Source of the DNA: Minisyncoccia bacterium
Lineage (GTDB): Bacteria > Patescibacteriota > Minisyncoccia > JACQLN01
Length of the DNA: 64,000 nt
Assembly (NCBI GenBank): GCA_049274895.1
Contig: JBASTM010000008.1
Coordinates: forward strand, 645 to 64,644
Direction: 5' to 3'
Made by a program: the position numbers and the translations under genes
Notes under the pieces: model-generated
What the model saw: only the letters and a program-made list of their open reading frames with translations
What the model was told of the DNA's origin: nothing
The model's database searches: none
In this document: one piece after another, positions 14,596-63,047 of the stretch
Numbering within the stretch: the stretch's first letter is position 1
Layout: each line of letters opens with the position of its first letter

Positions 14596-14649
14596 TCAGA
14601 TAACAGAAGGTTCTTTAACAACAATACAGTGAGAAAGGAGTGTGTTGAG

Positions 14650-15828: not shown

Positions 15829-15834
15829 ACCAAA

Positions 15835-17001: not shown

Positions 17002-17101
17002 GAATGGCTATATGTTTTACAGGAGCGAGATGCTTAATTTGGTATCCGCTCCTTTTTATTCCAATAAAAAAGGCCCCACTTTTTTCAGTGAGGCCGCAAA
17101 T

Positions 17102-18259
17102 TCATTGCATTGTGGCAAACCTTTGACGCATAGTCTCGGCTTGTTTAATGATTCGGCATTCCACTTGTTGTGCGGTCATACTCTCGGCTTCCAACCAGAA
17201 AACAACTGCTCTCCGAATAAATATCAGTGAAAGGAGATCGCCACATCTTTCTCGTTGGTTCGCCGTAAGATTGCCATCCGCGAATTTGGATAAAAAACGA
17301 TAAAGAACCTCTGACCAATCTTCAGCTGAAAATACTGGTTCAGGCGCAAGCATTCTTCTCTCTATTGTTAAATAAAAGTCTTCCAGGAAAAAGAGATATT
17401 CTTCCTTGAGACGTTTAAATCTTTCCGTAGCGTCAGCCATTAACTTTTTTGCTTTTTCCTTGTGAGGGAACATGGCTTTGTCGTCTATACCAACTCGAGA
17501 TGGCGGTTTAAGATTAATATAACGAACAGTTTGATGGCCCACCCTCCAGTAAGAACTGATGCATTCAAGAGCCGTCTGGGATACTTGTGTAAACATGGGC
17601 ATGATCTTGGGAAAGCTGGGTTTATGAAACTTTTTACCAAGAAAAGACTCGCCAATTTTAAATCCTCCGCCTATTGAATGAAGAGTCATGAAGATGTCTA
17701 TGCCATATTGAAAAGCAGTAGGCGGTACCGTCCGTGACAATAGATAGTCCACCACCTCTTTGCTTAGCGCGAATTCTCCTCCGATTGGCTGGCGTATAGT
17801 GATGCCGAATACTGCGCAGATCAAGGGTAGCGCCAGATGGTTTGTTATACTGCCCTCAAATCTATTCCTACTGTATAGCGGGCACACATAATCGCAGGCA
17901 CCGTCAGTCACAGGGCTAATCAAGTTAGGAACCCACGACGGTTCTATTGTCAGTAGGTCAGCATCGAAAGTCGCTGTGACTTTTGCACCGATTGAATGGC
18001 TATACCCAAACAGCGATAGTAAGTTTTTTCCCTTACCCCTGTTCTCCCCGCCAGTATTAATGAAATGCTTTGAACATTTGGTTTCTGTGGTGAGAAAAGC
18101 AGATCTAGTACCGTCAGAACTATTATTATCAACATTAACTATGACACACTCCTGTGACATGAATGTTTTGGATAAACCCGCGTCAATGATTGACACGACA
18201 TTGCCGATAGAATCGGCCTCATTAAAAGACGGGATTCCCACAACTATCTTGGTTTCCAT
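17102..18259 (-). CDS. GT2-family (GT-A fold) glycosyltransferase
   Basis: IVVGIPSFNEADSI near the N-terminus and DxD-like TFDADL. Confidence 0.5.
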   Translation of the reverse strand: METKIVVGIPSFNEADSIGNVVSIIDAGLSKTFMSQECVIVNVDNNSSDGTRSAFLTTETKCSKHFINTGGENRGKGKNLLSLFGYSHSIGAKVTATFDADLLTIEPSWVPNLISPVTDGACDYVCPLYSRNRFEGSITNHLALPLICAVFGITIRQPIGGEFALSKEVVDYLLSRTVPPTAFQYGIDIFMTLHSIGGGFKIGESFLGKKFHKPSFPKIMPMFTQVSQTALECISSYWRVGHQTVRYINLKPPSRVGIDDKAMFPHKEKAKKLMADATERFKRLKEEYLFFLEDFYLTIERRMLAPEPVFSAEDWSEVLYRFLSKFADGNLTANQRERCGDLLSLIFIRRAVVFWLEAESMTAQQVECRIIKQAETMRQRFATMQ

Positions 18260-21340: not shown

Positions 21341-23464
21341 ATGCCCGCTTCAATTATAAATTGCTCTGATCTTAAAGAAGCCGATGTGGTTTTGTTGGGC
21401 GCCAATTACGACGTCACTTCGTCTTTTGGCAAAGGGGCGAGCCATGGCCCGGCGGCCATTATTGATTGCTTGCATACCCAAGTTGAATTTTTAGACCGCT
21501 ACACCGGCCTGACGCCGCGGGATCACTTGAAGATCGCTTACCAAGATTTGGGTGATCTAAATTCGCTTAGTCCCGAGGCAATGGTGGACAGAATCAAAAA
21601 CGCTTACGGCGAGCATTTGGGTTTTGGGCGTTTCAACATTCTTTTAGGCGGCGAGCATTCCGTGACCAGCGGGGCCTTAAAAGCCATCGGCCAGCGCCAT
21701 TTTCCGTCCGAAATAACCGTGGTGCAACTGGACGCCCATTTTGATTTGCGCGACACCGACGAGGATTTTAACGACCAGCCGTGGGGCAGGTATTCTCATG
21801 CCACAGTGATGAGGCGGGCCTTTGAACTCGGTTATAAAATAGTTTCGGTGGGCGTGCGGGCTTATTCCGGCCAAGAATACGATTTTGCCCGCGAGCGCGG
21901 CATTGCCTTTTTTGAATGGGGTAAAGGCAGGGTGCCTTCTCACCAAGAAATCTTAAAGGCCATTACCACCGACAAAGTTTATTTGACCATAGACGCGGAC
22001 GGTTTTGACCCGGTGCATCTGCCGGCCACCGGCACGCCCGTGCAGGGCGGGCTGGAATGGAATTACGCCTTAGGGCTGATAAGTGAAATTTTTAAGCATA
22101 AAAAAGTTGTCGGCGCCGATGTGGTGGAGGTTTCACCCAGGGCGGGCGATACGCTGACCGAATACGGCGCCGCCCAAATTTGCCATAATTTAATGGCCGG
22201 GCATTTAAGCGGGACCGATAAATTAAAAAATATGAATACAGAACCTGATTTTGGGCTTGACGGGAATCCGGGCCATCAAGTTGTTGGTGATGGCCAAATG
22301 GGCGCGCCGGTGATCGGCCGCAGCGTGGCAGAATGCGCTTCGTTAAAAGATATTTTTGAAAATGCCCTGCCGGCTTTCGGCGGAGCTTATCTTAAAAGAG
22401 TTTATAGTATTTTACGCCAGGCCATTTTAAACAACGTGCCTCTGGTAATAAGTATAGCCGGGCCGGTGACCGTGTCCGATCAGCACCGCGCCTGGCTGAT
22501 TCCCTTGCTGGAAACCGGCTGGGTGGCCTATTTAACTACCACCGACGCCGCCTGCTACCACGACGGCCACGACGCCTTGTATAAATCAGCCCCAGGGGAT
22601 CGCCCCATAAAAGAAGTTGATATTTTCGGCGACGACGGCGCTTACCGCGAAGCGGGAATCATACGCGTGGCCGATACCGGATTCAAAGAACAAGTTATTT
22701 TTGACCAGGACCGGATGATTTCGGCCGTGTTGCAACGTCCTGAATTCCAAAAACGCATGACCACCACCGAGCGCAATTATATGTTGGGTCGGTATTATCA
22801 AAATCAGGAAGAGGAAGTCGGTGTTCGGCCGGGGTTACTCTCCACTTGTTCGCGTTTGGGCCTGCCGGTGTTCGTGGGCGCCGCGGCCGACGGCAGCGCT
22901 TTTCTCAACTCCGTAAAACTGTGGGCCTTAAACCGTGTTTCCAACCGCCCCTATTGGTTTGACTATGATCTCCACGCCGACGTTTTTGAAAGCTGCGCTT
23001 ACCATTATTGGGGTCTTTTTGATTCCGAAGCCAAGGCCTTGGGCGCTTTGATTTTGGGCGGGGGCGTGCCCAAAAATTACAGTTTGCAGCCCGAGCCGAC
23101 GCTGTCGCAGATATTTTTGTTGCCGGGCATCCGCGGCTACGATTACGACGTCCAGATTGTATCTTCTCCGGTAACCGACGGCAGTTTATCTGGCTGTCTT
23201 CCGGCCGAGGCGGTGAGCTGGGGTAAGGTTAACCCCGAAACTTATCGCCAGCAAACCGAGAGCATGCAGGCCGATTATTCTATGGTAATGCCCTTCATCG
23301 TCAAAGCCCTGCTGGATGATCCCGCTCTTCCACGCCGGCCCCAGCTGGGTTTGTATCATCGCCGCCAGGAACTGGTTAACAAACTTTTTGACGCAGTGGC
23401 CCAGAACCAAGCGGCCATTGAAGAAACCTTAAATTATCCCCTTAAAATTGTAGCCAGTGCTTAG
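21341..23464 (+). CDS. Fusion protein: ureohydrolase (agmatinase/arginase family) N-domain plus deoxyhypusine-synthase-like C-domain
   Basis: N-terminal half GGEHSVT…DAHFDLRD…DADGFDP (Mn-binding ureohydrolase motifs); C-terminal half GGGVPKN…AEAVSWGKV (deoxyhypusine/homospermidine synthase NAD-site and catalytic-Lys motif). Confidence 0.6.
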   Translation: MPASIINCSDLKEADVVLLGANYDVTSSFGKGASHGPAAIIDCLHTQVEFLDRYTGLTPRDHLKIAYQDLGDLNSLSPEAMVDRIKNAYGEHLGFGRFNILLGGEHSVTSGALKAIGQRHFPSEITVVQLDAHFDLRDTDEDFNDQPWGRYSHATVMRRAFELGYKIVSVGVRAYSGQEYDFARERGIAFFEWGKGRVPSHQEILKAITTDKVYLTIDADGFDPVHLPATGTPVQGGLEWNYALGLISEIFKHKKVVGADVVEVSPRAGDTLTEYGAAQICHNLMAGHLSGTDKLKNMNTEPDFGLDGNPGHQVVGDGQMGAPVIGRSVAECASLKDIFENALPAFGGAYLKRVYSILRQAILNNVPLVISIAGPVTVSDQHRAWLIPLLETGWVAYLTTTDAACYHDGHDALYKSAPGDRPIKEVDIFGDDGAYREAGIIRVADTGFKEQVIFDQDRMISAVLQRPEFQKRMTTTERNYMLGRYYQNQEEEVGVRPGLLSTCSRLGLPVFVGAAADGSAFLNSVKLWALNRVSNRPYWFDYDLHADVFESCAYHYWGLFDSEAKALGALILGGGVPKNYSLQPEPTLSQIFLLPGIRGYDYDVQIVSSPVTDGSLSGCLPAEAVSWGKVNPETYRQQTESMQADYSMVMPFIVKALLDDPALPRRPQLGLYHRRQELVNKLFDAVAQNQAAIEETLNYPLKIVASA

Positions 23465-26940: not shown

Positions 26941-27152
26941 GGGCTTTGTCTAAAAATTTGTCCCGTACGATACGGGACAAATTTTTAGGAACAAAACCTT
27001 ACCCCGCCCTAATTCTGTTTGCGAACTGCGATTTTCCGTGAGCTCGAGCGAAGCGCTTCGCTCGAAATCATTGGAAGTATCAAGATCGTGGCTGGAATTA
27101 GGGCGGGGTTCTATATTTTACAACTATTCGCTTTGCTCACAGGTAAAATATG
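26938..27152 (+). repeat. Modular intergenic cassette, copy A (rpsJ to rplC)
   Basis: Starts TAAGGGCTTTGTCTAAAAA on the stop codon; hairpin CTAAAAATTTGTCCCGTAcgaTACGGGACAAATTTTTAG; long-range stem ACCCCGCCCTAATTC…GAATTAGGGCGGGGT; ends …CTATTCGCTTTGCTCACAGGTAAAATATG. Confidence 0.65.
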
Positions 27153-27560
27153 AAATACATCATCGGAGAAAAATTAGGTATGACGCAGTTGGTGGGCGAA
27201 AAGGGCGAAATCATCCCGGTGACTTTGATTGGAGCCGAAACCGATTTCTCCCCGGGAGATTTAGTCAAAGTCAGCGCCCGTTCCACCGGCAAGGGTTTTC
27301 AGGGGGTGGTCAAAAGACATGGCTTTCACGGCAGTCCGGCTTCGCACGGCCACCACGCCGTGTTGCGCCGCCCCGGGTCCATTGGCGGGCGGTTTCCCCA
27401 GAGAGTTTTGAAAGGCAAAAGAATGGGCGGCCGTACCGGGGGCCAGAGAGTCACCGTCAAAAACTTGAAGGTGATCAGGGTAGATGCGGCCCTTAAGGTC
27501 ATTGCGGTTAGAGGAGCAATACCCGGGAAGAAAGGGACGAGGGTGGAAATCCGGACATGA
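27150..27560 (+). CDS. rplC: 50S ribosomal protein L3 (short form)
   Basis: N-terminus MKYIIGEKLGMTQL… matches the L3 start; only 136 aa. Confidence 0.8.
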   Translation: MKYIIGEKLGMTQLVGEKGEIIPVTLIGAETDFSPGDLVKVSARSTGKGFQGVVKRHGFHGSPASHGHHAVLRRPGSIGGRFPQRVLKGKRMGGRTGGQRVTVKNLKVIRVDAALKVIAVRGAIPGKKGTRVEIRT

Positions 27561-29493: not shown

Positions 29494-29703
29494 GGGCTTT
29501 ACCCAAGAGCGGAGCGATTGGTTGTAAAACCTTACCCAGCACATAAATCAACGAGTCATGACAATAAAATATATAAAATCAAAATCAATAAAAGGTCAGT
29601 ATGCAAACAAAACCACACCCAGTGGATTTATGTGCTGGGTGCTCACTTTTATAACTAAATTTTATACGCTAAGCAGCTCTAAAATTTAGACAAAACTGGC
29701 ATG
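29491..29703 (+). repeat. Modular intergenic cassette, copy B (rplB to rpsS)
   Basis: Starts TAAGGGCTTTACCCAAGAGCGGAGCGATTGG; hairpin CCCAGCACATAAATC…GATTTATGTGCTGGG; ends GTGCTCACTTTTATAACT…TTTAGACAAAACTGGCATG. Confidence 0.6.
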
Positions 29704-30557: not shown

Positions 30558-31240
30558 TGGCTCACAAGATCAACCCCATAGCTTTCCGGCTCGGCATACA
30601 AAAAGATTGGAAGTCGCGCTGGTTTAACACCAAAAACTTCAAAAATTATTTGGAGGAAGATTTTGCCATCAGAAGTTGGCTGGAAAAGAAACTGGCCAAG
30701 GCTTCTTTGGAGAGCGTGGAGATAGTGAGGTCGGGCAGCTCCATTGGGGTGGTAATGAAATCGTCCCGTCCTGGTCTTATCATTGGCCGGGGCGGCAAGG
30801 GTTTGGAAGAACTTCAGCAGGGCCTCAAGCGCGAGTTGGGTAAAATTTACGCGGCTAGAAAGTCTAAATTAAATCACTCCCTTAAATTAGAAATAGAAGA
30901 AATAAAAAAACCGGAAAGCTATGCTAGGTTGGTAGCCAAGAACATAGCCGAACAGTTGGAAAAAAGAATTCCGCATCGCCGGGCTATGAAACAGATGATT
31001 GAGAAGGTTTCCGGAGAGGGCGGTATTAAGGGTGTAAAAATAAAAGTGGCCGGCCGGCTGGGCGGCGCCGAAATTGCCCGGCGGGAACAATTGGCCAAAG
31101 GCAAAATTCCGCTTCAGAGTTTAAGGGCGGATATAGACTATGCCCAAGCCGAAGCCCATACCACTTACGGCGTTATCGGTGTTAAAGTCTGGCTGTATAA
31201 AGGAGATGTTTTTTCCGATACTGCCCGCGAACAAAAGTGA
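30557..31240 (+). CDS. rpsC: 30S ribosomal protein S3
   Basis: [14 protein letters not shown]… start and KH domain. Confidence 0.9.
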   Translation: MAHKINPIAFRLGIQKDWKSRWFNTKNFKNYLEEDFAIRSWLEKKLAKASLESVEIVRSGSSIGVVMKSSRPGLIIGRGGKGLEELQQGLKRELGKIYAARKSKLNHSLKLEIEEIKKPESYARLVAKNIAEQLEKRIPHRRAMKQMIEKVSGEGGIKGVKIKVAGRLGGAEIARREQLAKGKIPLQSLRADIDYAQAEAHTTYGVIGVKVWLYKGDVFSDTAREQK

Positions 31241-31294
31241 GCGGGGTGCTCAATTTAATAGCTATTCGCTTCGCTCATAGATAAAATTGGCATG
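31238..31294 (+). repeat. Modular intergenic cassette, copy C (minimal; rpsC to rplP)
   Basis: TGAGCGGGGTGCTCAATTTAATAGCTATTCGCTTCGCTCATAGATAAAATTGGCATG — only the conserved 3' module. Confidence 0.65.
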
Positions 31295-32534: not shown

Positions 32535-32680
32535 GGGCTTTGTCTAAAAAATGGAACGAAGTGGACATTTTTTAGCTACAAAACCTTATCCTGAACGTAG
32601 TGAAGGATTACCCCTCGGTTTTTACCTCGGGGTGCTCAATTTAATAGCTATTCGCTTCGCTCATAGATAAAATTGGCATG
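32532..32680 (+). repeat. Modular intergenic cassette, copy D (rplN to rplX)
   Basis: TAAGGGCTTTGTCTAAAAAATGGAACGAAGTGGACATTTTTTAG hairpin … AAAACCTTA … GGGGTGCTCAATTTAATAGCTATTCGCTTCGCTCATAGATAAAATTGGCATG. Confidence 0.65.
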
Positions 32681-38928: not shown

Positions 38929-38968
38929 TTTGAGTATCTTTATGACTGTGAAAGATACTCATTTTTTA
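38929..38968. terminator. Bidirectional rho-independent terminator
   Basis: TGAGTATCTTTatgactgtgAAAGATACTCA flanked by AAAA and TTTTTT; sits between tRNA-Gly (+) and the DedA gene (-). Confidence 0.6.
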
Positions 38969-39588
38969 ATCTTAGATTTTACAAACTCCACGATCTGGCG
39001 GCGGTGGGCGGGGTTTTTGAGGATGTGGATTAAGGAGGGGAGGATGGATAAGAAAACAATCAGTCCAATGATGGGCAGTAGATAACGATCCACATTGGGC
39101 ACCACGCTACCCAAGTAGTAACCGGTCCCGGTGAGGCCGATGGACCACAAGAAACCGCCGGTGATGTTGTAAATAAAAAAAGATCGGTAATTCATTTTGC
39201 CCACGCCGGCCAAAATCGGCGCGAAGGTTCTTATTACCGGCATAAAGCGGGCGAGGATGAGAGTTTTGCCGCCGTGGCGGGCATAGAACTTTTGAGCGCG
39301 CTCCAGTTGGTTGCGGTGGAACAGCAGCGAATCTTCTTTGTTAAAAATCTTGTAGCCGACTCTACGGCCGAAAGTGTAGCCGAAATTGTCGCCCAAAACG
39401 GCGGCTATAAAAGTCACCGCCATCAAAGTCATTAAATCCAAAAAGCCCTGCGAGGCCAAAAATCCAGCCGTAAACAGCAAACTGTCGCCGGGCAGAAAGA
39501 AGCCGATAAAAAGACCAGATTCGGCAAAGACGATGCCAAAAAGGCCAAGGTACCCCGCGGCTTTGATTAGCGCCACCAAGTCAAACAT
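38959..39588 (-). CDS. DedA/VTT-family membrane protein
   Basis: …GLFGIVFAESGLFIGFFLPGDSLLFTAGFLAS… DedA signature. Confidence 0.7.
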   Translation of the reverse strand: MFDLVALIKAAGYLGLFGIVFAESGLFIGFFLPGDSLLFTAGFLASQGFLDLMTLMAVTFIAAVLGDNFGYTFGRRVGYKIFNKEDSLLFHRNQLERAQKFYARHGGKTLILARFMPVIRTFAPILAGVGKMNYRSFFIYNITGGFLWSIGLTGTGYYLGSVVPNVDRYLLPIIGLIVFLSILPSLIHILKNPAHRRQIVEFVKSKIKK

Positions 39589-39662
39589 AGTCTTCCAATT
39601 CTATCAGAAAGGTGTTATTTTAGTCTAAGTTTTGCTTGTCCTGCGAAACTTTGGTGAAGTAG

Positions 39663-39734
39663 GGCCGGAGTAACTCAGTGGTAGAGTAGCTGTTTCGTAA
39701 ACAGCAAGTCGCGAGTTCAATTCTCGCCTCCGGC
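39663..39734 (+). tRNA. tRNA-Thr (anticodon CGT)
   Basis: GCCGGAG acceptor, anticodon stem-loop GCTGT-TTCGTAA-ACAGC and T-arm GCGAG-TTCAATT-CTCGC; the downstream CDS ATG is 8 nt after the tRNA. Confidence 0.8.
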
Positions 39735-39741
39735 TCAAATT

Positions 39742-40518
39742 ATGAAATTATTGCTGTCCAGCTATTCGCTGGAACCATTTCCTCTGGAAGAGGTTTTTTT
39801 GTTGGCCCAAGAAATCAAGGCCGACGGTTTGGAATTGGTGCTGATGCCCGCGGTTTTTAAGCTGGGTTTAGAGAACGCCAAAAAACTTTCTCAAAAACAC
39901 GGTTTGCCAATTTTGAACCTCCATCAGCCGCCGTGGGGCGTTTTGTTTACGGGCCAGAGAGGTATCAAAAAACTTATCAATCAAGCCCAGCTGATCGGCG
40001 CTAAAAACATCGTGGCGCACTTGGCCACTATGCGGCGCGGTTTTAACAGTCCGTTTTTTGAATGGGTGAAGGATGTAGAAAAAGAATCCGGTATAAATAT
40101 CGCTTTTGAAAACGCCGCTCCGCGCGGTTTGGAAGATTGGCCCAGTTACGCCGGCCACCCCGAAAAACTGGAAAAATTTGTCGCCTCAAGAAACATCCAT
40201 TTAACCTTTGATGTGGCCAAGGCCTTTCTAAAAGGCATTGATCCTTATCAGTTTTTCCAAAGGCATCACCCCAACATCAAAGTGATTCACGTCCACGGCT
40301 TTAGCCGCGAGGGCAGTTTCCATGTCGGTTTTTTTGGCAATGAATTTGATTGGGCCGGTTTTATGTCTTTTGTGCGCAAGTTTGATTACGAGGGCGTGGT
40401 GACTTTGGAAATTTTCCCTCTGCATCGCTGGGTTTATTTCAATCTGCCGTCCCAATCCGATTTTGATCGGGCCAAAAGCATCATCAGGGAGAATTTTGAA
40501 ATTCTAAGGAGAGCATAA
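39742..40518 (+). CDS. Sugar phosphate isomerase/epimerase (xylose-isomerase-like TIM barrel)
   Basis: TIM-barrel-like pattern; starts 8 nt after tRNA-Thr with no SD. Confidence 0.45.
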   Translation: MKLLLSSYSLEPFPLEEVFLLAQEIKADGLELVLMPAVFKLGLENAKKLSQKHGLPILNLHQPPWGVLFTGQRGIKKLINQAQLIGAKNIVAHLATMRRGFNSPFFEWVKDVEKESGINIAFENAAPRGLEDWPSYAGHPEKLEKFVASRNIHLTFDVAKAFLKGIDPYQFFQRHHPNIKVIHVHGFSREGSFHVGFFGNEFDWAGFMSFVRKFDYEGVVTLEIFPLHRWVYFNLPSQSDFDRAKSIIRENFEILRRA

Positions 40519-40536
40519 TTTTGTTATACTTACTTT

Positions 40537-41650
40537 ATGACCCCAGAATTTAAGAGCAGATTGGAAGATTTATCAAATAAGCTCCGTCACCTGACGGACC
40601 GTCTTTGACCTTGCCCCCAAGAAGAATCAGCTTAATAATTTGGAGGCGGAAACAACCGGAAAAGACTTTTGGCAAAACCGCCTTCATTCCCGAAGTGTCC
40701 TCCGTGAGATTACCGACCTAAAAGATTTGGTTAGTAAGTGGGGAAATTACGAGAGCGATCTTAAACATCTGGCCGAAGTGGCCGAAATTTTTGAAGACTT
40801 GGCGGATAACGGCCAATTGTTTAAGGAATTCAAAAGATCTTTGGAAAAACTGGAGCTCGAGCTGGAAAAAGAAGAAACTTTGGTTTATATGTCGGGCCGT
40901 TACGACAAAGCTAACGCCGTTATGACCATTTATTCCGGCGCTGGCGGAACAGATGCCCAGGAGTGGGTGGAAATGCTGCTTAAGATGTATTTAAAATACT
41001 CCGAGAAAACCGGGTTCAAAACTCAAGTGATGGCGGTTACCGGTGGGCAGGAATCCGGCCTCAAAAATGCTATAATAGAGGTACACGGCCAATATGCCTA
41101 CGGCTACTTAAAACGGGAGAACGGTGTTCACCGCCTGGTTAGGGTTTCGCCGTTTTCATCGCAGAGTTTGAGGCATACCTCGTTCGCTTTAGTTGAGGTT
41201 TTGCCCGAACTGGACGGTGTTTCGGCTATAGAAATAAGGCCGGAGGATATTAGGGTGGATACCTACCGGGCCGGCGGGCCGGGCGGTCAATATGTTAACA
41301 AAACAGAATCAGCCGTAAGAGTAACGCACCTGGCCACGGGTTTGGTGGCAACTTCGCAGGCCGAAAGATCGCAGGGCACCAATAAAGACAAAGCCATGAA
41401 ACTGCTTTACGCCAAGCTTCAGCAAAGATTGGATCAAGAACATAAAAAGACCGTGGAGGAACTAAAAGGTGAGAACGTAAAGATAGAGTGGGGGCATCAA
41501 ATACGTTCCTATGTGTTGAACCCGTATAAAATGGTTAAAGACCACCGCACCGGTTATGAAACTACTCAAGCCGAAAATGTGTTGGCAGGAAATTTGAAAG
41601 ATTTTATAGAAGCTGAACTAAGGGCTTGGCCTGCGAGCGAAAGCGAGTAG
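40537..41650 (+). CDS. prfB: Peptide chain release factor 2 with programmed +1 frameshift (ORF1 40537-40608; +1 frame 40607-41650)
   Basis: ORF1 ends …GAC CGT CTT TGA C, the canonical CUU UGA C shift site; the +1 frame continues DLAPKKNQL… into the RF2 body with SPF and GGQ regions (…RAGGPGGQYVNKTESAVRVTH…). Confidence 0.85.
40603..40609 (+). promoter_or_regulatory. prfB +1 ribosomal frameshift site CTT TGA C
   Basis: An in-frame TGA after 23 codons; downstream +1 frame is the RF2 body. Confidence 0.8.
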
Positions 41651-41762
41651 TTGCCAAACCTTACCCAGCACCTTTTTGAGGTAAAGATTATTTATACATC
41701 TAAAAGGTGCTGGGTGCTCAATTTTATAACTATTTACTACGCTCTTAGATAAAATTGGCATG
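41648..41762 (+). repeat. Modular intergenic cassette, copy E (prfB to ftsE)
   Basis: AACCTTACCCAGCACCTTTTTGAGGTAAAGATTATTTATACATCTAAAAGGTGCTGGGTGCTCAATTTTATAACTATTTACTACGCTCTTAGATAAAATTGGCATG. Confidence 0.65.
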
Positions 41763-42440
41763 ATCCACTTTAAAAATATATCCAAAATCTATCCGCCGCA
41801 CATGGTGGCGCTGGAAGACGTTAATTTGATAGTCAGGCCTAAAGAGTTTATTTCGCTGGTGGGGTCTTCCGGAGCCGGCAAGTCAACTTTACTTAGGTTG
41901 TTGATAGGCGAGGAAGCGCCCACCATGGGTGAGATCATTGTGGGGGATGTAGCCATAAATTCTTTGGGCCACCACGAATTGCCGTATTTGAGGCGGAAAA
42001 TCGGTACGGTTTTTCAGGATTATAAATTGCTGGCCGCCAAGACAGTTTACGAAAACATCGCTTTTGCCATGGAGGTGGCCGGTAAGGATGAGTTGGAAAT
42101 AAAAGAAGATGTGCCGCAGGTGCTTAATTTGGTCGGCCTGGAGGATCGGGCCAATCAGTTTCCTTACCAGCTTTCGGGCGGGGAAAAACAGCGGGTGGCC
42201 ATTGGCCGGGCCTTGGTGCACCGGCCCGATATTCTGGTGGCCGACGAGCCCACCGGCAACCTGGACCCGATCAACACTTGGGAGGTCATCAACCTTTTGT
42301 TAAAGTTAAACGAGCTGGGCGCTACGGTCATTTTAGCCACCCACGACAATCAGATTGTTAATAATCTGGAACGGCGGGTGGTACTGATGGATAAGGGCCG
42401 GATTATTAAGGACGAGGAAAAGGGCAAATATTTAATATGA
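41760..42440 (+). CDS. ftsE: Cell-division ABC transporter ATPase FtsE
   Basis: Walker A GSSGAGKST, ABC signature LSGGEKQR and Walker B ILVADEPTGNLD. Confidence 0.85.
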   Translation: MIHFKNISKIYPPHMVALEDVNLIVRPKEFISLVGSSGAGKSTLLRLLIGEEAPTMGEIIVGDVAINSLGHHELPYLRRKIGTVFQDYKLLAAKTVYENIAFAMEVAGKDELEIKEDVPQVLNLVGLEDRANQFPYQLSGGEKQRVAIGRALVHRPDILVADEPTGNLDPINTWEVINLLLKLNELGATVILATHDNQIVNNLERRVVLMDKGRIIKDEEKGKYLI

Positions 42441-44719: not shown

Positions 44720-44995
44720 ATGTCTTTAGTCAAAGTAAAAGAAAAACATCAGATCACTTTACCCAATGTTATTCGTGAAGGGGTTGGTTTAGCTGTGGGT
44801 GATTGGGTTGATGTCAAAATTGAAAAAGGCCGGGTTACCCTTACTCCAAAGAGTATAGTGGGCCGACATATCGCCGAGGCGCTTAAGGATATAGAAGCCG
44901 GGCGGGTTTATGGACCGTTTAGTTCGGCCCAAGAACTTATAAAATCGCTTCACAGTGGAAGAAAAAAGAAAACAGTTTTGAGAAAGAAGAAATGA
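44720..44995 (+). CDS. AbrB/MazE/SpoVT-family antitoxin
   Basis: …ITLPNVIREGVGLAVGDWVDVKIEKGRVTLTP swapped-hairpin signature. Confidence 0.55.
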   Translation: MSLVKVKEKHQITLPNVIREGVGLAVGDWVDVKIEKGRVTLTPKSIVGRHIAEALKDIEAGRVYGPFSSAQELIKSLHSGRKKKTVLRKKK

Positions 44996-48314: not shown

Positions 48315-48719
48315 GTGGGGTCGTCCATTAAAATGAAAAAGGATTTTCAAAAATGGCATAACCAAAAACGGCATATTGAAAATGAGCGGCCGCGCGTATT
48401 TTTTAAGGAACGGGAAATTTGGTTTTGCCACCTTGGCGAAAATGTCGGTTTTGAACAAGATGGCAGGGGCGATGAATTTCTGCGCCCGATAGTGGTATTA
48501 AAAAAATTCAATAATGAAGTCCTCTGGGTAGTTCCTTTAACCAAAACCGATAAGAAAAATAAGTATTATTTTCCATTTTCTTTCAATAATGAAACAAGTG
48601 TTGCCATATTATCGCAAATACGGCTTGTTGATGCCAAGCGCTTAAAATACAAGATGGGTGATATGAAAGTTGAGTATTTTAAGGTCCTAAAGAACAAAAT
48701 CAGGCAATTTCTTGCCTGA
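48315..48719 (+). CDS. MazF/PemK-like toxin-fold protein (no obvious adjacent antitoxin)
   Basis: REIWFCHLGENVGFEQDGRGDEFLRPIVVL…VVPLTKTDKK resembles the MazF/Kid pattern. Confidence 0.4.
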   Translation: MGSSIKMKKDFQKWHNQKRHIENERPRVFFKEREIWFCHLGENVGFEQDGRGDEFLRPIVVLKKFNNEVLWVVPLTKTDKKNKYYFPFSFNNETSVAILSQIRLVDAKRLKYKMGDMKVEYFKVLKNKIRQFLA

Positions 48720-48833
48720 TTTTGTTTGTTACCCCCTTACGGGGGAGGGCCGAAGCCATTTGTAAGCATAAGTATATTCCTTACTGGTTTTGTTGTCAAT
48801 ATGTAGTGATTTTTGATATACTGCCTTTGAATT

Positions 48834-48904
48834 TGCGGGGTCATCTAATGGTAGGATACATGACTCTGAATCATGTCATCTAGGTTCGAATCCTAGCCCC
48901 GCAG
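48834..48904 (+). tRNA. tRNA-Gln (anticodon CTG)
   Basis: U1-A72 acceptor TGCGGGG, anticodon stem-loop CATGA-CTCTGAA-TCATG and T-arm CTAGG-TTCGAAT-CCTAG; the cca ATG lies 8 nt downstream. Confidence 0.8.
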
Positions 48905-48911
48905 CTGATAG

Positions 48912-50369
48912 ATGAAGAATCTCAAAATCCCCGATTACGTAAAAAACATATTAAGCCAGCTGGAGAAAGCCGGATACCAAGCGTATCTGGTGGGCGGGTG
49001 CGTGCGCGATTTACTGATGGATCGTGTGCCTTGGGATTGGGATGTAACCACCAATGCCAAACCGGAGGCGATCCAAAAGATATTTACCGACAGCGTCTAT
49101 GAAAATGATTTTGGCACGGTGGGAGTCAAAATCAGACACAGCGAGGATAGAACCGAGATCGTGGAGGTGACGCCTTACCGCAAAGAGGAATCATACAGCG
49201 ACAAGCGTCATCCCGACCGAGTCATATTTACGGAAGGCGTTGAGGAGGATTTGGCCCGGAGGGATTTTACCGTAAATGCTTTGGCGATGGATTCTAAAGG
49301 GAATATTATTGATCCTTTTGATGGCGAGAAAGACATTAAATCAAAAATCATTCGGGCGGTGGGTGAGCCGGAAAAAAGGTTTGAAGAAGATGCCTTGCGC
49401 CTGATGCGGGCGGTGCGGCTCGCGGCTCAACTGGATTTTGAAATTGAGTCCCAGACCAAATCGGCCATCAAATCAAAAGCCGGTTTGCTAAAAATGATCG
49501 CCCACGAAAGAATCCGCGACGAATTGATCAAACTGGTTGAATCGGACAACCCGGAGAGGGGTATTGTGCTGATGCAGGAACTAGGCCTTTTGAAAATCGT
49601 TTTGCCGGAAGTGGAAGAAGGTGTGGGCGTGGCCCAAAACAAGCACCATATTTATAATGTTTTTGAACATTTGGTAAAGTCGCTGGGCTGGGCGGCCAAA
49701 TACGGTTTTAACGTCTACGTTAGATTCGCCAGTTTGCTGCACGACGTGGGCAAACCCCGGGCTAAAGAAGGCGAGGGGCCGGAGGCCAGTTTCCACGGTC
49801 ACGAATTTATCGGCGCCAAGATGACGGCCCGGGCTTTGGAGCGCTTAAAATTCCCCAAGGATTTTATAGAAAAAGTTTACACGCTGGTGCGCTACCATAT
49901 GTTTTATTACAACGTGGATGAGGTTACGGAGAGGTCAGTCCGCCGGCTGGTGCGCAAAGCCGGGCCGGAAAATATGGCCGAGCTGTTGGAACTGCGGCAA
50001 GCGGAACGCAAGGGCTCGGGCGTGCCCAAAGCCGAGCCCTACAAACTGCGCCACCTAAAGTATATGATAGAGAAAGTTTCACGAGATCCGCTGACGGTGG
50101 GCATGTTAAAAGTGAACGGCGACGATGTGATGCAAACGCTCGGTGTTGAGCCCGGACCCAAAGTGGGCTATATTCTTAATGCCTTGCTGGAGGAGGTGAT
50201 TGACGAACCCGGCCGCAACGACCGCGAACATTTGTTGGATCGGATGAAAGAATTGAACCAGCTGCCGCTCTCGGAATTGGTGAAACTGGCCGAATCGGGC
50301 AAAGAAAAATTGGGGGAGGAAAAAGAAAAAGAGGATGAAGGGATAAAAGAGAAATACTATGTGAAATAA
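48912..50369 (+). CDS. cca: CCA-adding enzyme / poly(A)-polymerase family with HD domain
   Basis: LVGGCVRDLLMDRVPWDWDV nucleotidyltransferase head and an HD domain (HDVGK…H). Confidence 0.75.
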   Translation: MKNLKIPDYVKNILSQLEKAGYQAYLVGGCVRDLLMDRVPWDWDVTTNAKPEAIQKIFTDSVYENDFGTVGVKIRHSEDRTEIVEVTPYRKEESYSDKRHPDRVIFTEGVEEDLARRDFTVNALAMDSKGNIIDPFDGEKDIKSKIIRAVGEPEKRFEEDALRLMRAVRLAAQLDFEIESQTKSAIKSKAGLLKMIAHERIRDELIKLVESDNPERGIVLMQELGLLKIVLPEVEEGVGVAQNKHHIYNVFEHLVKSLGWAAKYGFNVYVRFASLLHDVGKPRAKEGEGPEASFHGHEFIGAKMTARALERLKFPKDFIEKVYTLVRYHMFYYNVDEVTERSVRRLVRKAGPENMAELLELRQAERKGSGVPKAEPYKLRHLKYMIEKVSRDPLTVGMLKVNGDDVMQTLGVEPGPKVGYILNALLEEVIDEPGRNDREHLLDRMKELNQLPLSELVKLAESGKEKLGEEKEKEDEGIKEKYYVK

Positions 50370-50396: not shown

Positions 50397-50409
50397 AACG
50401 GGCCATCGT

Positions 50410-50445
50410 ATACCGGTAGTACGCACGTTTTGGGGTCCGTTCCTC
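50410..50445 (+). other. tRNA 5'-half-like fragment (acceptor plus D-arm) upstream of tRNA-Pro
   Basis: CGGGCCATCGTATACCGGTAGTACGCACG has the same D-arm as tRNA-Pro; its acceptor complement TGGCCCG lies after a T-arm-like GACTGGGTTCAATTCCCAGT at 50632-50660. Confidence 0.35.
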
Positions 50446-50459
50446 TGGTCGGGGAATAG

Positions 50460-50533
50460 TATACCGGTAGTACGTGCGCTTCGGGTGCGTAAAGACCGGG
50501 TTCGATTCCCGGTTCCCCGACCAGAGGAACGGA
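50460..50533 (+). tRNA. tRNA-Pro (anticodon CGG) with encoded CCA
   Basis: CGGGGAA acceptor, anticodon loop TTCGGGT, T-arm CCGGG-TTCGATT-CCCGG and ACCA; its 5' and 3' flanks form a perfect 16-bp leader/trailer helix (GGTCCGTTCCTCTGGT / GACCAGAGGAACGGAC). Confidence 0.75.
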
Positions 50534-50767
50534 CGGGAATGCTACGGATAGCATTCCCCGGAAATTTACGAAGTAAATTTGTGTAGACTGGGTTCAATTC
50601 CCAGTGGCCCGACTGACGAACGAAGGTGAACACATTCGCCGCGCTCGGCTCAGCATCTTCCTCACTCTTGTTTGTCGAGAAGTACTGAGGTCACCAGACC
50701 GAATGTACTGAACGAAAAGGACTCATAGTTAAGTGGTATAACGGTGCATTCGTCCCGCTGGATTTTC

Positions 50768-50841
50768 GGGGGTATAGTATAGCGGTAATACGCGGCATTC
50801 GCATTGCCGAGACCTGGGTTCGATTCCCAGTACCTCCACCA
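50768..50841 (+). tRNA. tRNA-Ala (anticodon CGC) with encoded CCA
   Basis: GGGGGTA acceptor, anticodon stem-loop CGGCA-TTCGCAT-TGCCG and T-arm CTGGG-TTCGATT-CCCAG; flanks GGATTTTCGGG / CCCGAAAATCC form an 11-bp helix. Confidence 0.75.
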
Positions 50842-50985
50842 TACTCCCGAAAATCCCACGGGATTGCGATTTGTAGCTCCGACTTGTCGTCGGAGACAAA
50901 TCGGGAACATTGCTTGGCAATCGGAGCGATTCCGCCGGGTCCACCGAGCTCAACTCGGTCCACTGAAACTTTTTCTCAATCAAGG

Positions 50986-50991
50986 TATAAT
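50986..50991 (+). promoter_or_regulatory. TATAAT -10 box 8 nt upstream of the ATG (leaderless start) for the C39-like peptidase gene
   Basis: caaggTATAATacttaacaATG with no SD. Confidence 0.4.
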
Positions 50992-50999
50992 ACTTAACA

Positions 51000-51764
51000 A
51001 TGGCCAGAATCAAAAAGACTCTCGTAATCCCATCGGCTATTTTAATAACGGTGGCCGGTTTTTATTTCACTCCCATCGGTGGAATAGTCGGCGAAGCCAT
51101 CAATACTTGGTCCATCAAACTGGCCCGCGTGGAAAAAGAAATAATGTACTCGGCCCAGGCGTTGCAGTTTTTTGGAGCCAAGCCCGATGTTAACCTTAAT
51201 GTCCCTTTCCACCGGCAGGAGCACGCTTTGTCGTGCGAGATCGCGGCTTTGAAAATGGCGCTTAATTATCACGGCCAGGTGGTGTCCGAAGGCGAACTGT
51301 TAAAAGACCTGCCTTTTGACACCGCGGATTCCAGAAGTTCGGGCAACATTTGGGGCGATCCGGACAGGGGTTTTGTGGGCGACATTGACGGCAAAGTGCC
51401 CCACGGCGGCTATGGAGTTTATGAAGACCCCATAGTCAATTTGGCCTTGCGGTATCGCGACGCTAAAAAATTGGAGAATGCCACTCTGTTTGATGTTTTG
51501 ACCGAAGTGGCCGGCGGCAATCCGGTTATCGTTTGGGGTTTTATCGCGTCGGGTAAGGATATTTCTTGGCGCACTAAGGAAGACAAATACATTAAAGCCG
51601 TTTTCGGCGAACATACGCGAGTTATTACCGGATTTTCCGGCACGCCCGAGAATCCTAAAACCATTACATTGTTGGATCCTATTTACGGCAAAATCAGAAT
51701 GTCGGCTAAGGGCTTTGAAGGCAACTGGGCCCGATTGGGCAATAAAGCCATAGTGGTATATTGA
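51000..51764 (+). CDS. Papain-fold cysteine peptidase, C39-like (C39_2/YvpB-like)
   Basis: N-terminal TM/signal, then Q…LSCEIAALKMAL (Cys) and a downstream His region. Confidence 0.45.
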   Translation: MARIKKTLVIPSAILITVAGFYFTPIGGIVGEAINTWSIKLARVEKEIMYSAQALQFFGAKPDVNLNVPFHRQEHALSCEIAALKMALNYHGQVVSEGELLKDLPFDTADSRSSGNIWGDPDRGFVGDIDGKVPHGGYGVYEDPIVNLALRYRDAKKLENATLFDVLTEVAGGNPVIVWGFIASGKDISWRTKEDKYIKAVFGEHTRVITGFSGTPENPKTITLLDPIYGKIRMSAKGFEGNWARLGNKAIVVY

Positions 51765-51768
51765 TCAA

Positions 51769-52308
51769 ATGGAATTCCTAAAACGGCCGCTGGCTATAAC
51801 CGACGTAGAAACAACCGGTCTTGATTACGGCTTGCACGAGATAATAGAAATCGGCCTGGTTTTAGCCGACCAAAAAAATCTGAAGGTTTTGGACGAGTGG
51901 TCGGTTAAAGTGAAACCGCGCAAAATAAAAACGGCCGCCGAACCGGCGCTCAAAGTGGCTGGTTACAACAAACTGGATTGGCTGGAGGCCATCAGTTTGG
52001 AGGCGGCGATGGAAGTGTATTCCAAAAAAACCAAAAATGCCATTCTTGTGGCGCAAAACTCTTTTTTTGATTGGTCGTTTTTAAGCGAGGCCTTCAAAGC
52101 CACCGGCGTGGAGGACCATACCGATTACCATCGGGTGGATTTGTTCACCATCGGCTGGTCAAAGGCGCACGAACTCCACGGCCTTAAAAAATTTACCTTA
52201 AAAGAGATGTGCCGGTATTTTTGCCTTGAGCCCGAACCAATGCCGCACCGCGCCATAAACGGCGCTCGCAAAGCCCTGGAGGTTTTGAGAAAATTAAGAG
52301 GTGTTTAG
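51769..52308 (+). CDS. DEDD-family 3'-5' exonuclease (DnaQ/epsilon-like)
   Basis: Exo I motif ITDVETTGL and the H-containing Exo III region. Confidence 0.65.
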   Translation: MEFLKRPLAITDVETTGLDYGLHEIIEIGLVLADQKNLKVLDEWSVKVKPRKIKTAAEPALKVAGYNKLDWLEAISLEAAMEVYSKKTKNAILVAQNSFFDWSFLSEAFKATGVEDHTDYHRVDLFTIGWSKAHELHGLKKFTLKEMCRYFCLEPEPMPHRAINGARKALEVLRKLRGV

Positions 52309-57582: not shown

Positions 57583-57873
57583 CTAGGGACTCGGGTGTAG
57601 ATATCGATAAGTGTTAGAAGTTCTGCGTTCTACCCAGAAAACATGTATTAATCTTTTTGAAATGTGTATTTCGTAAAAAATCCTATACGAGCCCACACGC
57701 CTCCGCCAAGTATTTTCTTCGCCTTTAATTTTATTAGTATCACCCACAAAAGGATCCATTATTAATAATTCAATGATGTCGGTTATCTTTTCAGAGTATT
57801 CTTTGGGGAATTTTTTGATTTGTCTACGAACTTTATCGTCCACTTTCAATTCCCAATTTTCGTTTGAGCTCAT
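57583..57873 (-). CDS. RelE/ParE-family toxin
   Basis: …TWRRRVGSYRIFYEIHISKRLIHVFWVERR core. Confidence 0.65.
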   Translation of the reverse strand: MSSNENWELKVDDKVRRQIKKFPKEYSEKITDIIELLIMDPFVGDTNKIKGEENTWRRRVGSYRIFYEIHISKRLIHVFWVERRTSNTYRYLHPSP

Positions 57874-58370: not shown

Positions 58371-59384
58371 TTAATTAGTTCTTTGCCAACTTTCGCCAGC
58401 ATTTGAACTCCGATAGATTATACCATCTTCACTAGAAGCAGTAAGTTCTCTGGAATTTTTGGGATTGATGGCAATGGCAGTAATCTTGATACCATTAAGA
58501 CCGTCTAGTTTTTTCCAGTTTTGTCCAGCGTCAATCGTTTTCCAAGCCCCGGTTTGTGTGCCTGCATATATAACAGATAAATCTTTATGAAGAGTGGCAA
58601 GAGTATAAACTGTTGTGTTGTCAAAAACATTTGTTGTCTTTGTCCAGCCACAGAAACAACTGAAAGATTGGAAAACGCCGTCAGCCGTTCCCGCCAAAAG
58701 GAGACCCCAATTATCCCAGCCCATAGATTTATCCATCGAAGTTTGTACTGCCATGTATGCAAACGATCTTATTCCGGGATTCTCTGGTCCATCATCCATA
58801 CGCTTCCACGAAACGCCGCCGTCTTTACTTTTGAACACCCCATTATCAACAGAGTAGGCAAAAAGTAAATCGGGATTGCGTTGATTAATCGCCAAGCCAT
58901 GAATATCCGTACCTTTTATCCCATCATCAGAACGCATCCAAGTAATACCGCCGTCAATACTTTTTATGACACCTAAATCATGCCCACCGGCAAAAATTGT
59001 TTTCTGGTTTCGAGGGTCAACAACGATACTCATCCAATCATCAGCGTTGACACTTCCCTTTACCGAAACCTTTTGCCAAGTTTTGCCGCCATCGTCGCTC
59101 TTGAATAGACCGCCGTGTGTTCCTAAAAGTAAATTGCCTTCGGTGTCGTAGGTAATAGCATGGATATGTTGAGCTCCGGGTATTACAGAATTGCTAGAAC
59201 CACCTTCATCGCTATGAGACATTACTGTTTTATTAACCGAAGTATCTGCCGGAGTGTTAGTAGATTTGTTACTCACGCCCAAGAAATAGCCAACTACTAT
59301 GGCACCAACAATAAAAACTGGAATTAATAATTTGTTGTTCATATGATTAAAAATTTTTCTTCCCCCAAAATGCGGAACCGCCAA
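58371..59384 (-). CDS. BNR/Asp-box repeat beta-propeller protein (Ycf48/sialidase-like), membrane-anchored
   Basis: Repeated S-x-D-G-G-x-T-W motifs (SDDGGKTW, SIDGGITW, SKDGGVSW, SNAGESW); N-terminal TM helix. Confidence 0.6.
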   Translation of the reverse strand: MAVPHFGGRKIFNHMNNKLLIPVFIVGAIVVGYFLGVSNKSTNTPADTSVNKTVMSHSDEGGSSNSVIPGAQHIHAITYDTEGNLLLGTHGGLFKSDDGGKTWQKVSVKGSVNADDWMSIVVDPRNQKTIFAGGHDLGVIKSIDGGITWMRSDDGIKGTDIHGLAINQRNPDLLFAYSVDNGVFKSKDGGVSWKRMDDGPENPGIRSFAYMAVQTSMDKSMGWDNWGLLLAGTADGVFQSFSCFCGWTKTTNVFDNTTVYTLATLHKDLSVIYAGTQTGAWKTIDAGQNWKKLDGLNGIKITAIAINPKNSRELTASSEDGIIYRSSNAGESWQRTN

Positions 59385-59468
59385 TTCGTTTTTACCCCCA
59401 AAATTGAATACAAATTAGTCGCCGAGCGAAGCGAGGCGAACCAAAACTCTTTGACTTTTCCTGTCTGG
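59340..59468 (-). repeat. Conserved ~130-nt module between tRNA-Leu(GAG) and the downstream gene (copy 2 of 2)
   Basis: Near-identical to 10300-10438. Confidence 0.7.
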
Positions 59469-59551
59469 TGCGCGGGGGGAGACTCGAACTCCCAAGCCTT
59501 ACGGCATACGCACCTCAAGCGTACGTGTATACCAAATTCCACCACCCGCGC
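59466..59551 (-). tRNA. tRNA-Leu (anticodon GAG), type II, with encoded CCA
   Basis: GCGCGGG acceptor, anticodon stem-loop TACGC-TTGAGGT-GCGTA, long variable arm and T-arm GGGAG-TTCGAGT-CTCCC. Confidence 0.8.
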
Positions 59552-59660
59552 TTTATTTTCTCGGCAAAGCCTCGGTCAAAAAACTGTGGCGGGTAGGTGG
59601 CCGGGGCAGCTTTTGCTGCCCGCGGAAAGCTGCGTTCACTCGCTTTCCGCCCACCCGCGC

Positions 59661-62508: not shown

Positions 62509-62724
62509 ATGCCTGCAATTTTAAGAGAAAACTTGGATAACAGAATCAAAGATGCTTCCAAGGTACTGGGAGTAGATAAAAAGGAGCTTATAGAAAGAGC
62601 CGTAGCTTTTTATTTGGATAGTGTCCAAAAAACAATGGAGTTGAAAGAAGAACTGGAAGCTTGGGATATGTTAAGTAATGAGGTTTTGGAGTTATCGGAA
62701 AAAAGCATTTCCAGAAAAATGTGA
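62509..62724 (+). CDS. Putative antitoxin (MazE-like partner)
   Basis: 71-aa ORF with a 4-nt overlap with the MazF-like toxin. Confidence 0.45.
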   Translation: MPAILRENLDNRIKDASKVLGVDKKELIERAVAFYLDSVQKTMELKEELEAWDMLSNEVLELSEKSISRKM

Positions 62725-63047
62725 AAAAAGGAGAAGTTTGGATTGTGGAGTTGCCATTAACCAGCGGGCACGAGCAGGTTGGAACAAGACCTGCTATTGT
62801 TTTGGCCGACACTAGATCGCCGGTGGTAGTGGTTGCCCCGCTTACTACTAATCTCCAAGCGCTAAGATTTCCTTTTACGCTATTAGTTTCTCCATCAAGG
62901 CTGAATGGTCTAGATACAGATTCAGTGGTGTTGGTTTTGCACCTCAGAGCTATAGATCGCAAACGATTAAAGAATAAAATAGGCCTTATTGAAAAATCAA
63001 CGTTAAAAGAAATAGACAAGGTTTTAAGACGGTTGCTTATGATTTAA
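62721..63047 (+). CDS. MazF/PemK-family toxin
   Basis: GEVWIVELPLTSGHEQVGTRPAIVL…VVVAPLTT MazF signature. Confidence 0.65.
   Translation: MKKGEVWIVELPLTSGHEQVGTRPAIVLADTRSPVVVVAPLTTNLQALRFPFTLLVSPSRLNGLDTDSVVLVLHLRAIDRKRLKNKIGLIEKSTLKEIDKVLRRLLMI

Follow-up and report, generated by a model that had tools for sequence, protein, structure and literature searches.

The stretch of DNA analysed here, 64,000 nucleotides (nt) of contig JBASTM010000008.1 that we call the window, comes from a tiny groundwater bacterium of the Parcubacteria (Patescibacteria, or candidate phyla radiation, CPR), whose closest named relatives, judging from homologue matches, are the 'Candidatus Sungbacteria'. The window holds 13 transfer RNA (tRNA) genes and about 76 protein genes, including tuf and the S10 and spc ribosomal-protein cluster. 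Two protein genes, one for a sugar-phosphate isomerase/epimerase and the other (cca) for the CCA-adding tRNA nucleotidyltransferase, begin 6 and 7 nt after a co-oriented tRNA and are not preceded by a Shine-Dalgarno (SD) sequence. The reading that we favour, and regard as reasonably probable, is that excision of the tRNA would free a near-leaderless messenger RNA (mRNA) whose translation starts next to its 5' end. Such an arrangement appears to be a plausible bacterial variant of the tRNA punctuation of mitochondria.

Two protein genes start next to a tRNA

Both tRNAs were called concordantly by ARAGORN and Rfam. The tRNA-Thr(CGU) gene (39664-39735, + strand; 70.6 bits in Rfam) has no encoded CCA. 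Its acceptor stem ends at 39734, the position given as the end of the tRNA in the original prediction, and is followed by the discriminator T at 39735 and by a C at position 74. A spacer of 6 nt, CAAATT (39736-39741, +), with neither an SD nor a -10 motif, leads to the ATG at 39742, which was correctly located from the outset. This ATG opens the isomerase gene (39742-40518, +), whose product of 258 amino acids (aa) is a xylose isomerase-like TIM barrel (Pfam AP_endonuc_2, E = 3e-14). The tRNA-Gln(CUG) gene (48834-48904, +) also lacks an encoded CCA and has a G discriminator at 48904 and C at position 74. The end at 48904 and the cca ATG at 48912 are as originally predicted, and the spacer between them, CTGATAG (48905-48911, +), is 7 nt long; an identical junction is found in the related locus L025. 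The cca gene (48912-50369, +) codes for a protein with all four Pfam domains expected for a CCA-adding enzyme (PolyA_pol, PolyA_pol_RNAbd, HD and tRNA_NucTran2_2). The distance of about 8 nt first proposed for both junctions was right as to their tightness but is a difference between coordinates, the real gaps being the 6 and 7 nt that follow the discriminators.

The start codons themselves are well supported by conservation and do not lie further downstream. In an alignment of 29 isomerase homologues the conserved sequence begins at residue 1 (MKLLLSSYSLEPFPLEE) and the same methionine is the start in 23 of them. The start of cca is matched by a 100% identical NCBI protein of 485 aa, and the amino-terminal pattern M-x-IP-x-EV is conserved.

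A promoter precedes each tRNA. The one of tRNA-Thr is an extended -10 element, TGtTATTTT (39613-39621, +), located 42 nt 5' of the tRNA and invariant or nearly so in 9 related cassettes, inverted ones included; a two-hexamer scan missed it because its -35 is weak. The tRNA-Gln promoter is of the sigma-70 type, TTGTCA-18 nt-TATACT with TG (48793-48822, +; 10/12 matches in the scan), and its -10 ends 11 nt 5' of the tRNA. The same scan gave no + strand promoter-like site inside or after tRNA-Thr or tRNA-Gln before the ATG, nor is there a terminator-like site between either tRNA and the ATG that follows. Since a promoter stands before each tRNA and none between tRNA and ATG, the downstream gene would be read from the tRNA transcript, from which the tRNA would be cut off.

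The tRNA-Thr cassette in related genomes

Scanning of GTDB species genomes with the isomerase alignment led to ten Parcubacteria-like loci (L001-L010), and tRNA-Thr(CGT) lies nearby in all of them. An ATG is always found 2-7 nt past the tRNA-Thr discriminator in these 10 genomes, yet it belongs to three different genes. L007-L010 resemble the window, with tRNA-Thr co-oriented with the isomerase gene and the ATG 6-7 nt past the discriminator. In L002-L006 the tRNA-Thr and its promoter form an inverted cassette and it is a gene of the DedA/VTT family that starts 2-4 nt past the discriminator; L002 and L006 read GGCT-CC-ATG, where the A of an encoded CCA doubles as the A of the ATG. In L001, an inserted gene of 677 aa begins 7 nt after tRNA-Thr and the displaced isomerase gene has a TATAAT 9 nt before its ATG.

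The gene on the other side of the cassette faces a promoter. In the window this is the divergent DedA/VTT gene (38959-39588, - strand, ATG at 39588-39586), which has a leaderless-type promoter (39586-39606, -) consisting of TGaTAGAAT (39606-39598), 9 nt and the ATG (TAGACT-18-TAGAAT with TG in the promoter scan). The same element drives the isomerase gene in L002-L006, where it reads TGtTA(C/G)TAT and lies 9 nt from the ATG. Whichever gene faces the promoter, TGnTAnnAT is positioned 7-9 nt before its ATG, with the exception of L004 where the distance is 11 nt. According to alignment A3 the entire intergenic segment, flanked by the same pair of divergent genes, is homologous in both orientations. 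It is made up, in this order, of CAT, 9 nt, a -10 in reverse complement, CAGAAA, TGkTATTTT (the two -10 elements thus standing back to back), a variable spacer, tRNA-Thr, 2-7 nt and ATG. Flipping of the cassette exchanges the promoter side and the tRNA side between the two genes, and the persistence of both arrangements argues that a bare ATG receives the same from either side; most simply, this would be a nearby RNA 5' end.

tRNA-to-start junctions across related contigs

A metagenome scan with cca provided 80 loci (49-87% identity). The pooled sample consists of 197 non-redundant tRNAs in related contigs (L001-L096), which originate from the Hainich groundwater wells H41, H43 and H51; ARAGORN was run on all sequences, the discriminators were then placed by acceptor-stem pairing, and open reading frames (ORFs) of at least 90 aa were considered. 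For 43 of the 197 tRNAs such an ORF starts 1-13 nt past the discriminator, with modes at 2 nt and 7-8 nt, and the start codon is ATG in 38 cases, TTG in 3 and GTG in 2. Counted in bins of 5 nt, the distances give 16, 17 and 10 ORFs, then 1-5 per bin up to 300 nt. Presumably only a handful of such ATGs would arise by chance, following our own rough estimate, and the juxtaposition of tRNA and ORF exceeds this expectation. The 43 junctions span 8 isoacceptors and 42 distinct amino termini, and their spacers are poor in G (20 G in 273 nt). Five of the 197 tRNAs are tightly flanked on both sides, by a stop codon 2-6 nt 5' and an ATG 1-8 nt 3'.

The cca gene is found behind several different tRNAs. 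It follows tRNA-Gln(CTG) with a gap of 7 nt in the window and L025, tRNA-Lys(CTT) in L039 (8 nt), tRNA-Arg(CCT) in L069 (11 nt) and L071 (8 nt), tRNA-Arg(TCG) in L087 (11 nt) and L058 (10 nt), and tRNA-Gly(CCC) in L085 (7 nt) and L061 (8 nt). In L017 a different gene begins 12 nt after tRNA-Gln and cca overlaps the stop of that gene by 4 nt. A TANNNT located 5-10 nt from the ATG, in many cases TATAAT, TAGAAT or TAAAAT, is seen in 35 of 76 cca orthologues; 8 lie behind a tRNA and 6 are coupled to an upstream coding sequence (CDS).

The first nucleotide after the discriminator is strikingly constant: position 74 is C in 193 of the 197 tRNA genes and in all 13 of the window. No more than 51 of the 197 genes encode the complete CCA, and position 75 is A in 105 and C in 65. 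This pattern hints at an unusual, lineage-specific rule of 3' cleavage or repair.

SD sequences and -10 phasing

In agreement with the original prediction, GGAG or GAGG is absent 5' of the starts of the isomerase gene, of cca, of a C39-like peptidase gene and of the genes behind the repeated TAGATAAAATTGGC cassette described below. The SD and -10 statistics were drawn from 474 genes scored by codon usage in 541 kilobases of related contigs. GGAG or GAGG occurs at -18 to -4 of 10.5% of promoter-proximal, 4.2% of operon-internal and 5.9% of tRNA-adjacent genes, for a background of 8%; spacers of 5-9 nt are slightly over-represented, by an amount equivalent to about 5% of genes. The few convincing SDs of the window mean that SD use is rare, not absent. 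Good SDs (AGGAGG, AAGGAG or GGAGG) stand 6-10 nt before the ATGs at 9387 (-), 14650, 15835, 18259 (-), 57414 (-) and 58402 (-), for instance AGGAGG at 9387 and AAGGAG at 14650 and 15835; several of these genes belong to a cluster for sugar modification (14629-18259) and were perhaps acquired recently.

By comparison, -10 hexamers are clearly phased. The spacing from TANNNT to the start in 287 promoter-proximal genes gives 40, 19, 20 and 29 hits at 6, 7, 8 and 9 nt, against about 10.7 per position elsewhere, and 16 window genes have a -10 hexamer 6-9 nt before the start. Among these phased elements are TAGAAT at 9 nt for DedA, TATAAT at 8 nt for the C39-like gene and TATACT at 6 nt for prfB. 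The C39-like peptidase gene (51000-51764, +; Peptidase_C39_2) has a leaderless-type promoter (50986-51002, +; CTGAAA-17-TATAAT, 10/12 in the scan) in which TATAAT (50986-50991) is separated by 8 nt from the ATG at 51000, exactly as had been noted before. The leaderless-type promoter of prfB (40522-40539, +) is TGtTATACT followed by 6 nt and the ATG at 40537.

The prfB gene carries the +1 frameshift site CTT TGA C (CTTTGAC at 40603) in frame with this ATG, and the canonical SD-like stimulator is absent from the site in the window and in six relatives (L001-L004, L007, L009). A small hairpin, CCGTC-ACCT-GACGG, is found 5 nt 5' of the frameshift site (40583-40609), and relatives retain it through compensatory changes (CCAGC/GCTGG; CGTC/GACG). 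The hairpin may act as frameshift stimulator in place of the SD:anti-SD duplex. According to Tsurumaki et al. (2022, PMC9297842), the anti-SD motif was detected in no more than 48% of the 16S genes from Parcubacteria, and its loss in a subgroup of this lineage would explain both the background level of SD motifs and a prfB site without SD-like stimulator.

Proposed route from tRNA excision to translation

We propose that the isomerase gene forms one transcription unit with tRNA-Thr, and cca another with tRNA-Gln, each read from the promoter before the tRNA. RNase P would trim the 5' leader of the tRNA, and an endonuclease would cut the CCA-less precursor at or just after the discriminator. An RNase Z type of enzyme is likely, perhaps cutting after the near-invariant C74; the RNase Z pathway is known for CCA-less bacterial tRNAs and is the basis for this predicted 3' cut. 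The tRNA would then be completed by the CCA-adding enzyme, which in the case of tRNA-Gln is encoded on the same transcript. The RNA released downstream would begin with a 5'-monophosphate, and its leader, poor in G, would measure 5-7 nt in the window and 0-12 nt in relatives. This short-leader RNA would be translated by the same leaderless-type initiation as the genes with a -10 box 6-9 nt before the ATG: because SD pairing is used by very few genes, 5'-end-proximal initiation on the cleaved RNA is probable.

A more general proposal can be advanced, with less confidence. Parcubacteria that largely lack SD pairing would choose their starts mainly by proximity to an RNA 5' end, and these ends would be made in two interchangeable ways, either by a -10 box 6-9 nt before the ATG or by the 3' processing site of a co-transcribed tRNA. 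The flipping tRNA-Thr cassette would be a natural demonstration of this exchange and C74 would mark the cleavage rule.

Alternative explanations

The alternative that survives best, although we judge it rather improbable, is compaction only. The tRNAs would simply sit in packed operons and the 30S subunit would initiate internally, independently of SD, on A/U-rich unstructured RNA; the position of the 5' end would be irrelevant and the short spacing a by-product of streamlining. SD-independent internal initiation on A/U-rich RNA is the mode found in Bacteroidetes. Several observations lend weight to compaction and count against tRNA punctuation. When all types of junction were scored with the same gene models and a cut-off of 13 nt or less, 28/110 junctions from a tRNA 3' end to a same-strand start were tight, compared to 82/277 from CDS to CDS on the same strand, 22/120 from a CDS stop to a tRNA 5' end, 9/35 from a tRNA 3' end to a convergent stop and 0/65 for a divergent start beside a tRNA 5' end. 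Tight tRNA-to-ATG junctions (25-35%) are thus no commoner than tight CDS-to-CDS junctions (30%), and the other types, apart from the divergent one, are often tight as well, so that close packing is the rule unless a promoter has to fit in. The spacing is therefore accounted for by compaction no less than by selection for punctuation, of which it is no proof by itself; tRNAs occupy operons in much the way that CDSs do. A few syntenic isoacceptors moreover dominate the tRNA sample, which was gathered via two query genes. Starts are preceded by A-rich sequence (44-46% A at -11 to -3), showing that SD-independent internal initiation also exists here. Finally, some further mode of initiation must exist, since 34 of the 76 window genes have no tRNA, coupling, phased -10 or SD.

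Other points against tRNA punctuation concern the predicted RNA and its processing. The leaders of 5-7 nt are short rather than strictly absent, and in E. coli the addition of a few nucleotides at the 5' end is enough to reduce leaderless translation. No gene of RNase Z or RNase P was found in the window by a Pfam scan of 50 window proteins, which revealed an RNase T-like exonuclease (51769-52308) and a NYN-domain protein. RNase J, which is conserved in CPR (PMC12641178), would compete for the 5'-monophosphate RNAs generated by tRNA cleavage.

The arguments that favour tRNA excision over compaction are stronger than spacing. A folded tRNA of 72 nt located 1-7 nt before the AUG would leave no single-stranded landing site and would hinder internal binding of the 30S subunit. 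The tRNA has to be cleaved to be functional, hence the short-leader RNA would arise regardless. The junction arose anew, with other genes, following an inversion and gene insertions, and the inverted cassette still serves both neighbours. ATG is preferred, as seen in 38 of the 43 tight junctions, and translational coupling from an upstream ribosome is impossible for a gene behind a tRNA. The lack of divergent starts within 13 nt of a tRNA 5' end (0/65) also speaks for punctuation. The release of leaderless mRNAs by tRNA punctuation, as put forward in the original prediction, gains from this recurrence with many tRNAs and genes, while the spacing that suggested it is accounted for equally well by compaction. 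The companion claim of frequent leaderless translation is supported at the level of sequence in that SDs are rare and -10 elements are phased at 6-9 nt, and needs to be restricted for the short leaders predicted behind tRNAs and for the few genes with a good SD.

A promoter inside the tRNA gene, for instance around the T-arm, could in principle produce a separate short-leader transcript, and the T-loop of tRNA-Thr has a TTCAAT 22 nt before the ATG. We consider this very unlikely: beyond the negative promoter scan, this hexamer has no A at position 2 and differs between relatives (TTCGAT, TTCAAG), and the -12 to -7 position is occupied by the G+C-rich 3' strand of the acceptor stem. Erroneous starts, with the true ones further downstream behind their own signals and the tRNA-adjacent ATGs being accidental, are least credible of all, given the conserved amino termini and the 43 junctions at 1-13 nt against the handful that we roughly estimated; an exact-sequence look-up returned no recorded gene for the 258-aa isomerase, but it equally missed the 100% identical cca protein.

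Comparison with known systems

Mitochondrial tRNA punctuation, which yields leaderless mitochondrial mRNAs, was reportedly described by Ojala, Montoya and Attardi in 1981. As in that system, tRNA genes here abut ORFs that have no SD, with 0 to few nt in mitochondria and 6 nt (isomerase) and 7 nt (cca) in the window. Here too the mRNA ends would be set by cuts of the RNase P and RNase Z type at the tRNA borders, which would place the AUG at the 5' end or close to it, and the five tRNAs of relatives that are tight on both sides add to the likeness. The differences are that tRNAs do not separate most ORFs of the genome in our case, the arrangement being limited to 2 of 76 window genes and 22% of the tRNAs in relatives, that each unit has its own promoter instead of belonging to one genome-length transcript, and that the leaders would be 5-7 nt long and come from a predicted processing step.

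Leaderless genes of Actinobacteria and Deinococcus have their transcription start at the start codon and a TANNNT about 6-7 nt upstream. DedA, prfB, the C39-like gene and many cca orthologues conform to this model, with a -10 phased 6-9 nt before the ATG, no SD and a preference for ATG, whereas the isomerase and cca genes of the window have a tRNA where the -10 box would be. In the E. coli thrU-tyrU-glyT-thrT-tufB operon the tufB coding region, which is preceded by an SD of its own, begins about 100 nt past the tRNA. The common points are a tRNA co-oriented with a protein gene, a promoter before the tRNA and its release by processing, which is predicted in our case; unlike tufB, the genes described here have a gap of 6-7 nt and no leader of their own with an SD. 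Loss of the anti-SD (PMC9297842) concerns the same lineage, Parcubacteria, but it is a feature of the ribosomal RNA only, start-codon selection was not addressed in that work, the 16S gene of this genome lies outside the window, and a few genes here keep a good SD.

Generation of leaderless mRNAs by MazF was considered as a further class and rejected, as there is no ACA just 5' of the AUG. ACA, the MazF cleavage site, is absent from both spacers, CAAATT and CTGATAG; no link of the PemK/MazF-like toxins of the window to the tRNA junctions was thus found. Genes of such toxins are located at 48315-48719, directly 5' of the tRNA-Gln promoter, and at 62721-63047. A MazE-like antitoxin and a ParE-like toxin are encoded at 44720-44995 and 57583-57873.

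A repeated hairpin cassette before start codons

The original prediction had also cited as leaderless a cassette sequence that immediately precedes the ATG. TAGATAAAATTGGC-ATG is indeed found in three exact copies (31278-31294, 32664-32680 and 41746-41762) and in one with 2 mismatches (29687-29703); within 3 mismatches there are 5 matches in the window, for 0.34 expected. The genes behind these repeats are L16 (ATG at 31292), two more genes of the ribosomal-protein cluster (ATGs at 29701 and 32678) and an ftsE-like ABC ATPase gene (Pfam ABC_tran, ATG at 41760). The cassette is poor evidence for a leaderless promoter: a mere 4 nt separate its best -10-like sequence, TAAAAT, from the ATG, and TAGATA does not have the T at its end. 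TAGATAAAATTGGC instead makes up the 3' arm of a predicted hairpin. The 3' module of the cassette (41716-41762, +) forms the hairpin GCTCAATTTTAT / ATAAAATTGGC that ends at the ftsE-like ATG, and the last stem pairs GCUCAAUUUUAU with AUAAAAUUGGC, stopping at the AUG. Three hairpins are predicted in the copy at 41620-41775 (RNA fold z-score -6.06), and the copy at 63885-63937 has two compensatory changes in the hairpin. A diverged copy precedes 27150 and another one at the window end finishes ...GGCATA. Cassette copies of 55-130 nt lie at 27101-27156, 29632-29703, 31239-31294, 32625-32680, 41627-41762 and 63802-63937. Rfam gave only sub-threshold miRNA-like matches to the cassette. Like a tRNA, it may set a structured RNA end beside the ATG, according to the predicted fold.

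Other features of the window

A terminator-like hairpin followed by T7 (CCTCTGGAAGAGG TTTTTTT) is found at 39781-39803, 40 nt into the isomerase ORF, and L002 has a hairpin and T-run too, in a different register. The window hairpin could act as an attenuator of transcription coming from the tRNA promoter or simply reflect the conserved PLEEVFLL codons. Around the tRNA-Gln promoter (48771-48822) two overlapping promoter-like sites on opposite strands share the palindromic TTGTCAA; the minus-strand site (TTGACA-17-TATACT, 11/12 matches) would transcribe antisense to the MazF-like gene.

Several other tRNA genes of the window are associated with repeats. On the minus strand, a related insert of about 100 nt is present after tRNA-Glu and tRNA-Ser(TGA) (5113-5235 and 12510-12631) and is followed by a duplicate of the tRNA 3' end (AATCCCGTTGGCGCTA; GAATCTCACCCC), suggestive of an insertion that duplicated its target within the 3' part of the tRNA. 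A 146-nt repeat, 90% identical, comprises the 3' ends of tRNA-Arg(GCG) and tRNA-Leu(GAG) with the sequence downstream (10317-10462 and 59344-59489), and a 37-nt repeat is found just 5' of tRNA-Ser(TGA) and tRNA-Leu(GAG) (12713-12749 and 59546-59582). tRNA-Pro(CGG) and tRNA-Ala(CGC) (50399-50610 and 50740-50880) have complementary extensions of the acceptor stem (TCCGTTCCTCTGGT / ACCAGAGGAACGGA; TTTTCGGG / CCCGAAAA), and partial tRNA copies are found near them, a 5' half at 50399-50434 and a T-arm-like piece at about 50578-50600. Elsewhere, a single ORF of 707 aa (21341-23464) combines an arginase-family domain and a deoxyhypusine synthase domain, an unusual fusion.

Significance for Parcubacteria

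Taken singly, the translation of leaderless mRNAs, transcripts that combine tRNA and mRNA, and punctuation by tRNAs are all known already. In the literature that we searched there was no report of leaderless-type gene starts in CPR or Parcubacteria, nor of tRNA 3' processing as a source of leaderless or short-leader mRNAs in bacteria; in papers on P. acnes, S. coelicolor and mycobacteria, leaderless mRNAs are generated only by promoters or by MazF. The finding bears on how start codons are found without SD and anti-SD, and CPR are a large, mostly uncultured group with reduced ribosomes. If the favoured reading is true, the logic of mitochondrial punctuation would operate also in free-living or episymbiotic bacteria. 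It would link the expression of tRNAs and proteins, as for a CCA-less tRNA and the CCA-adding enzyme carried on one transcript, and it would provide gene finders with a rule for calling starts in such genomes.

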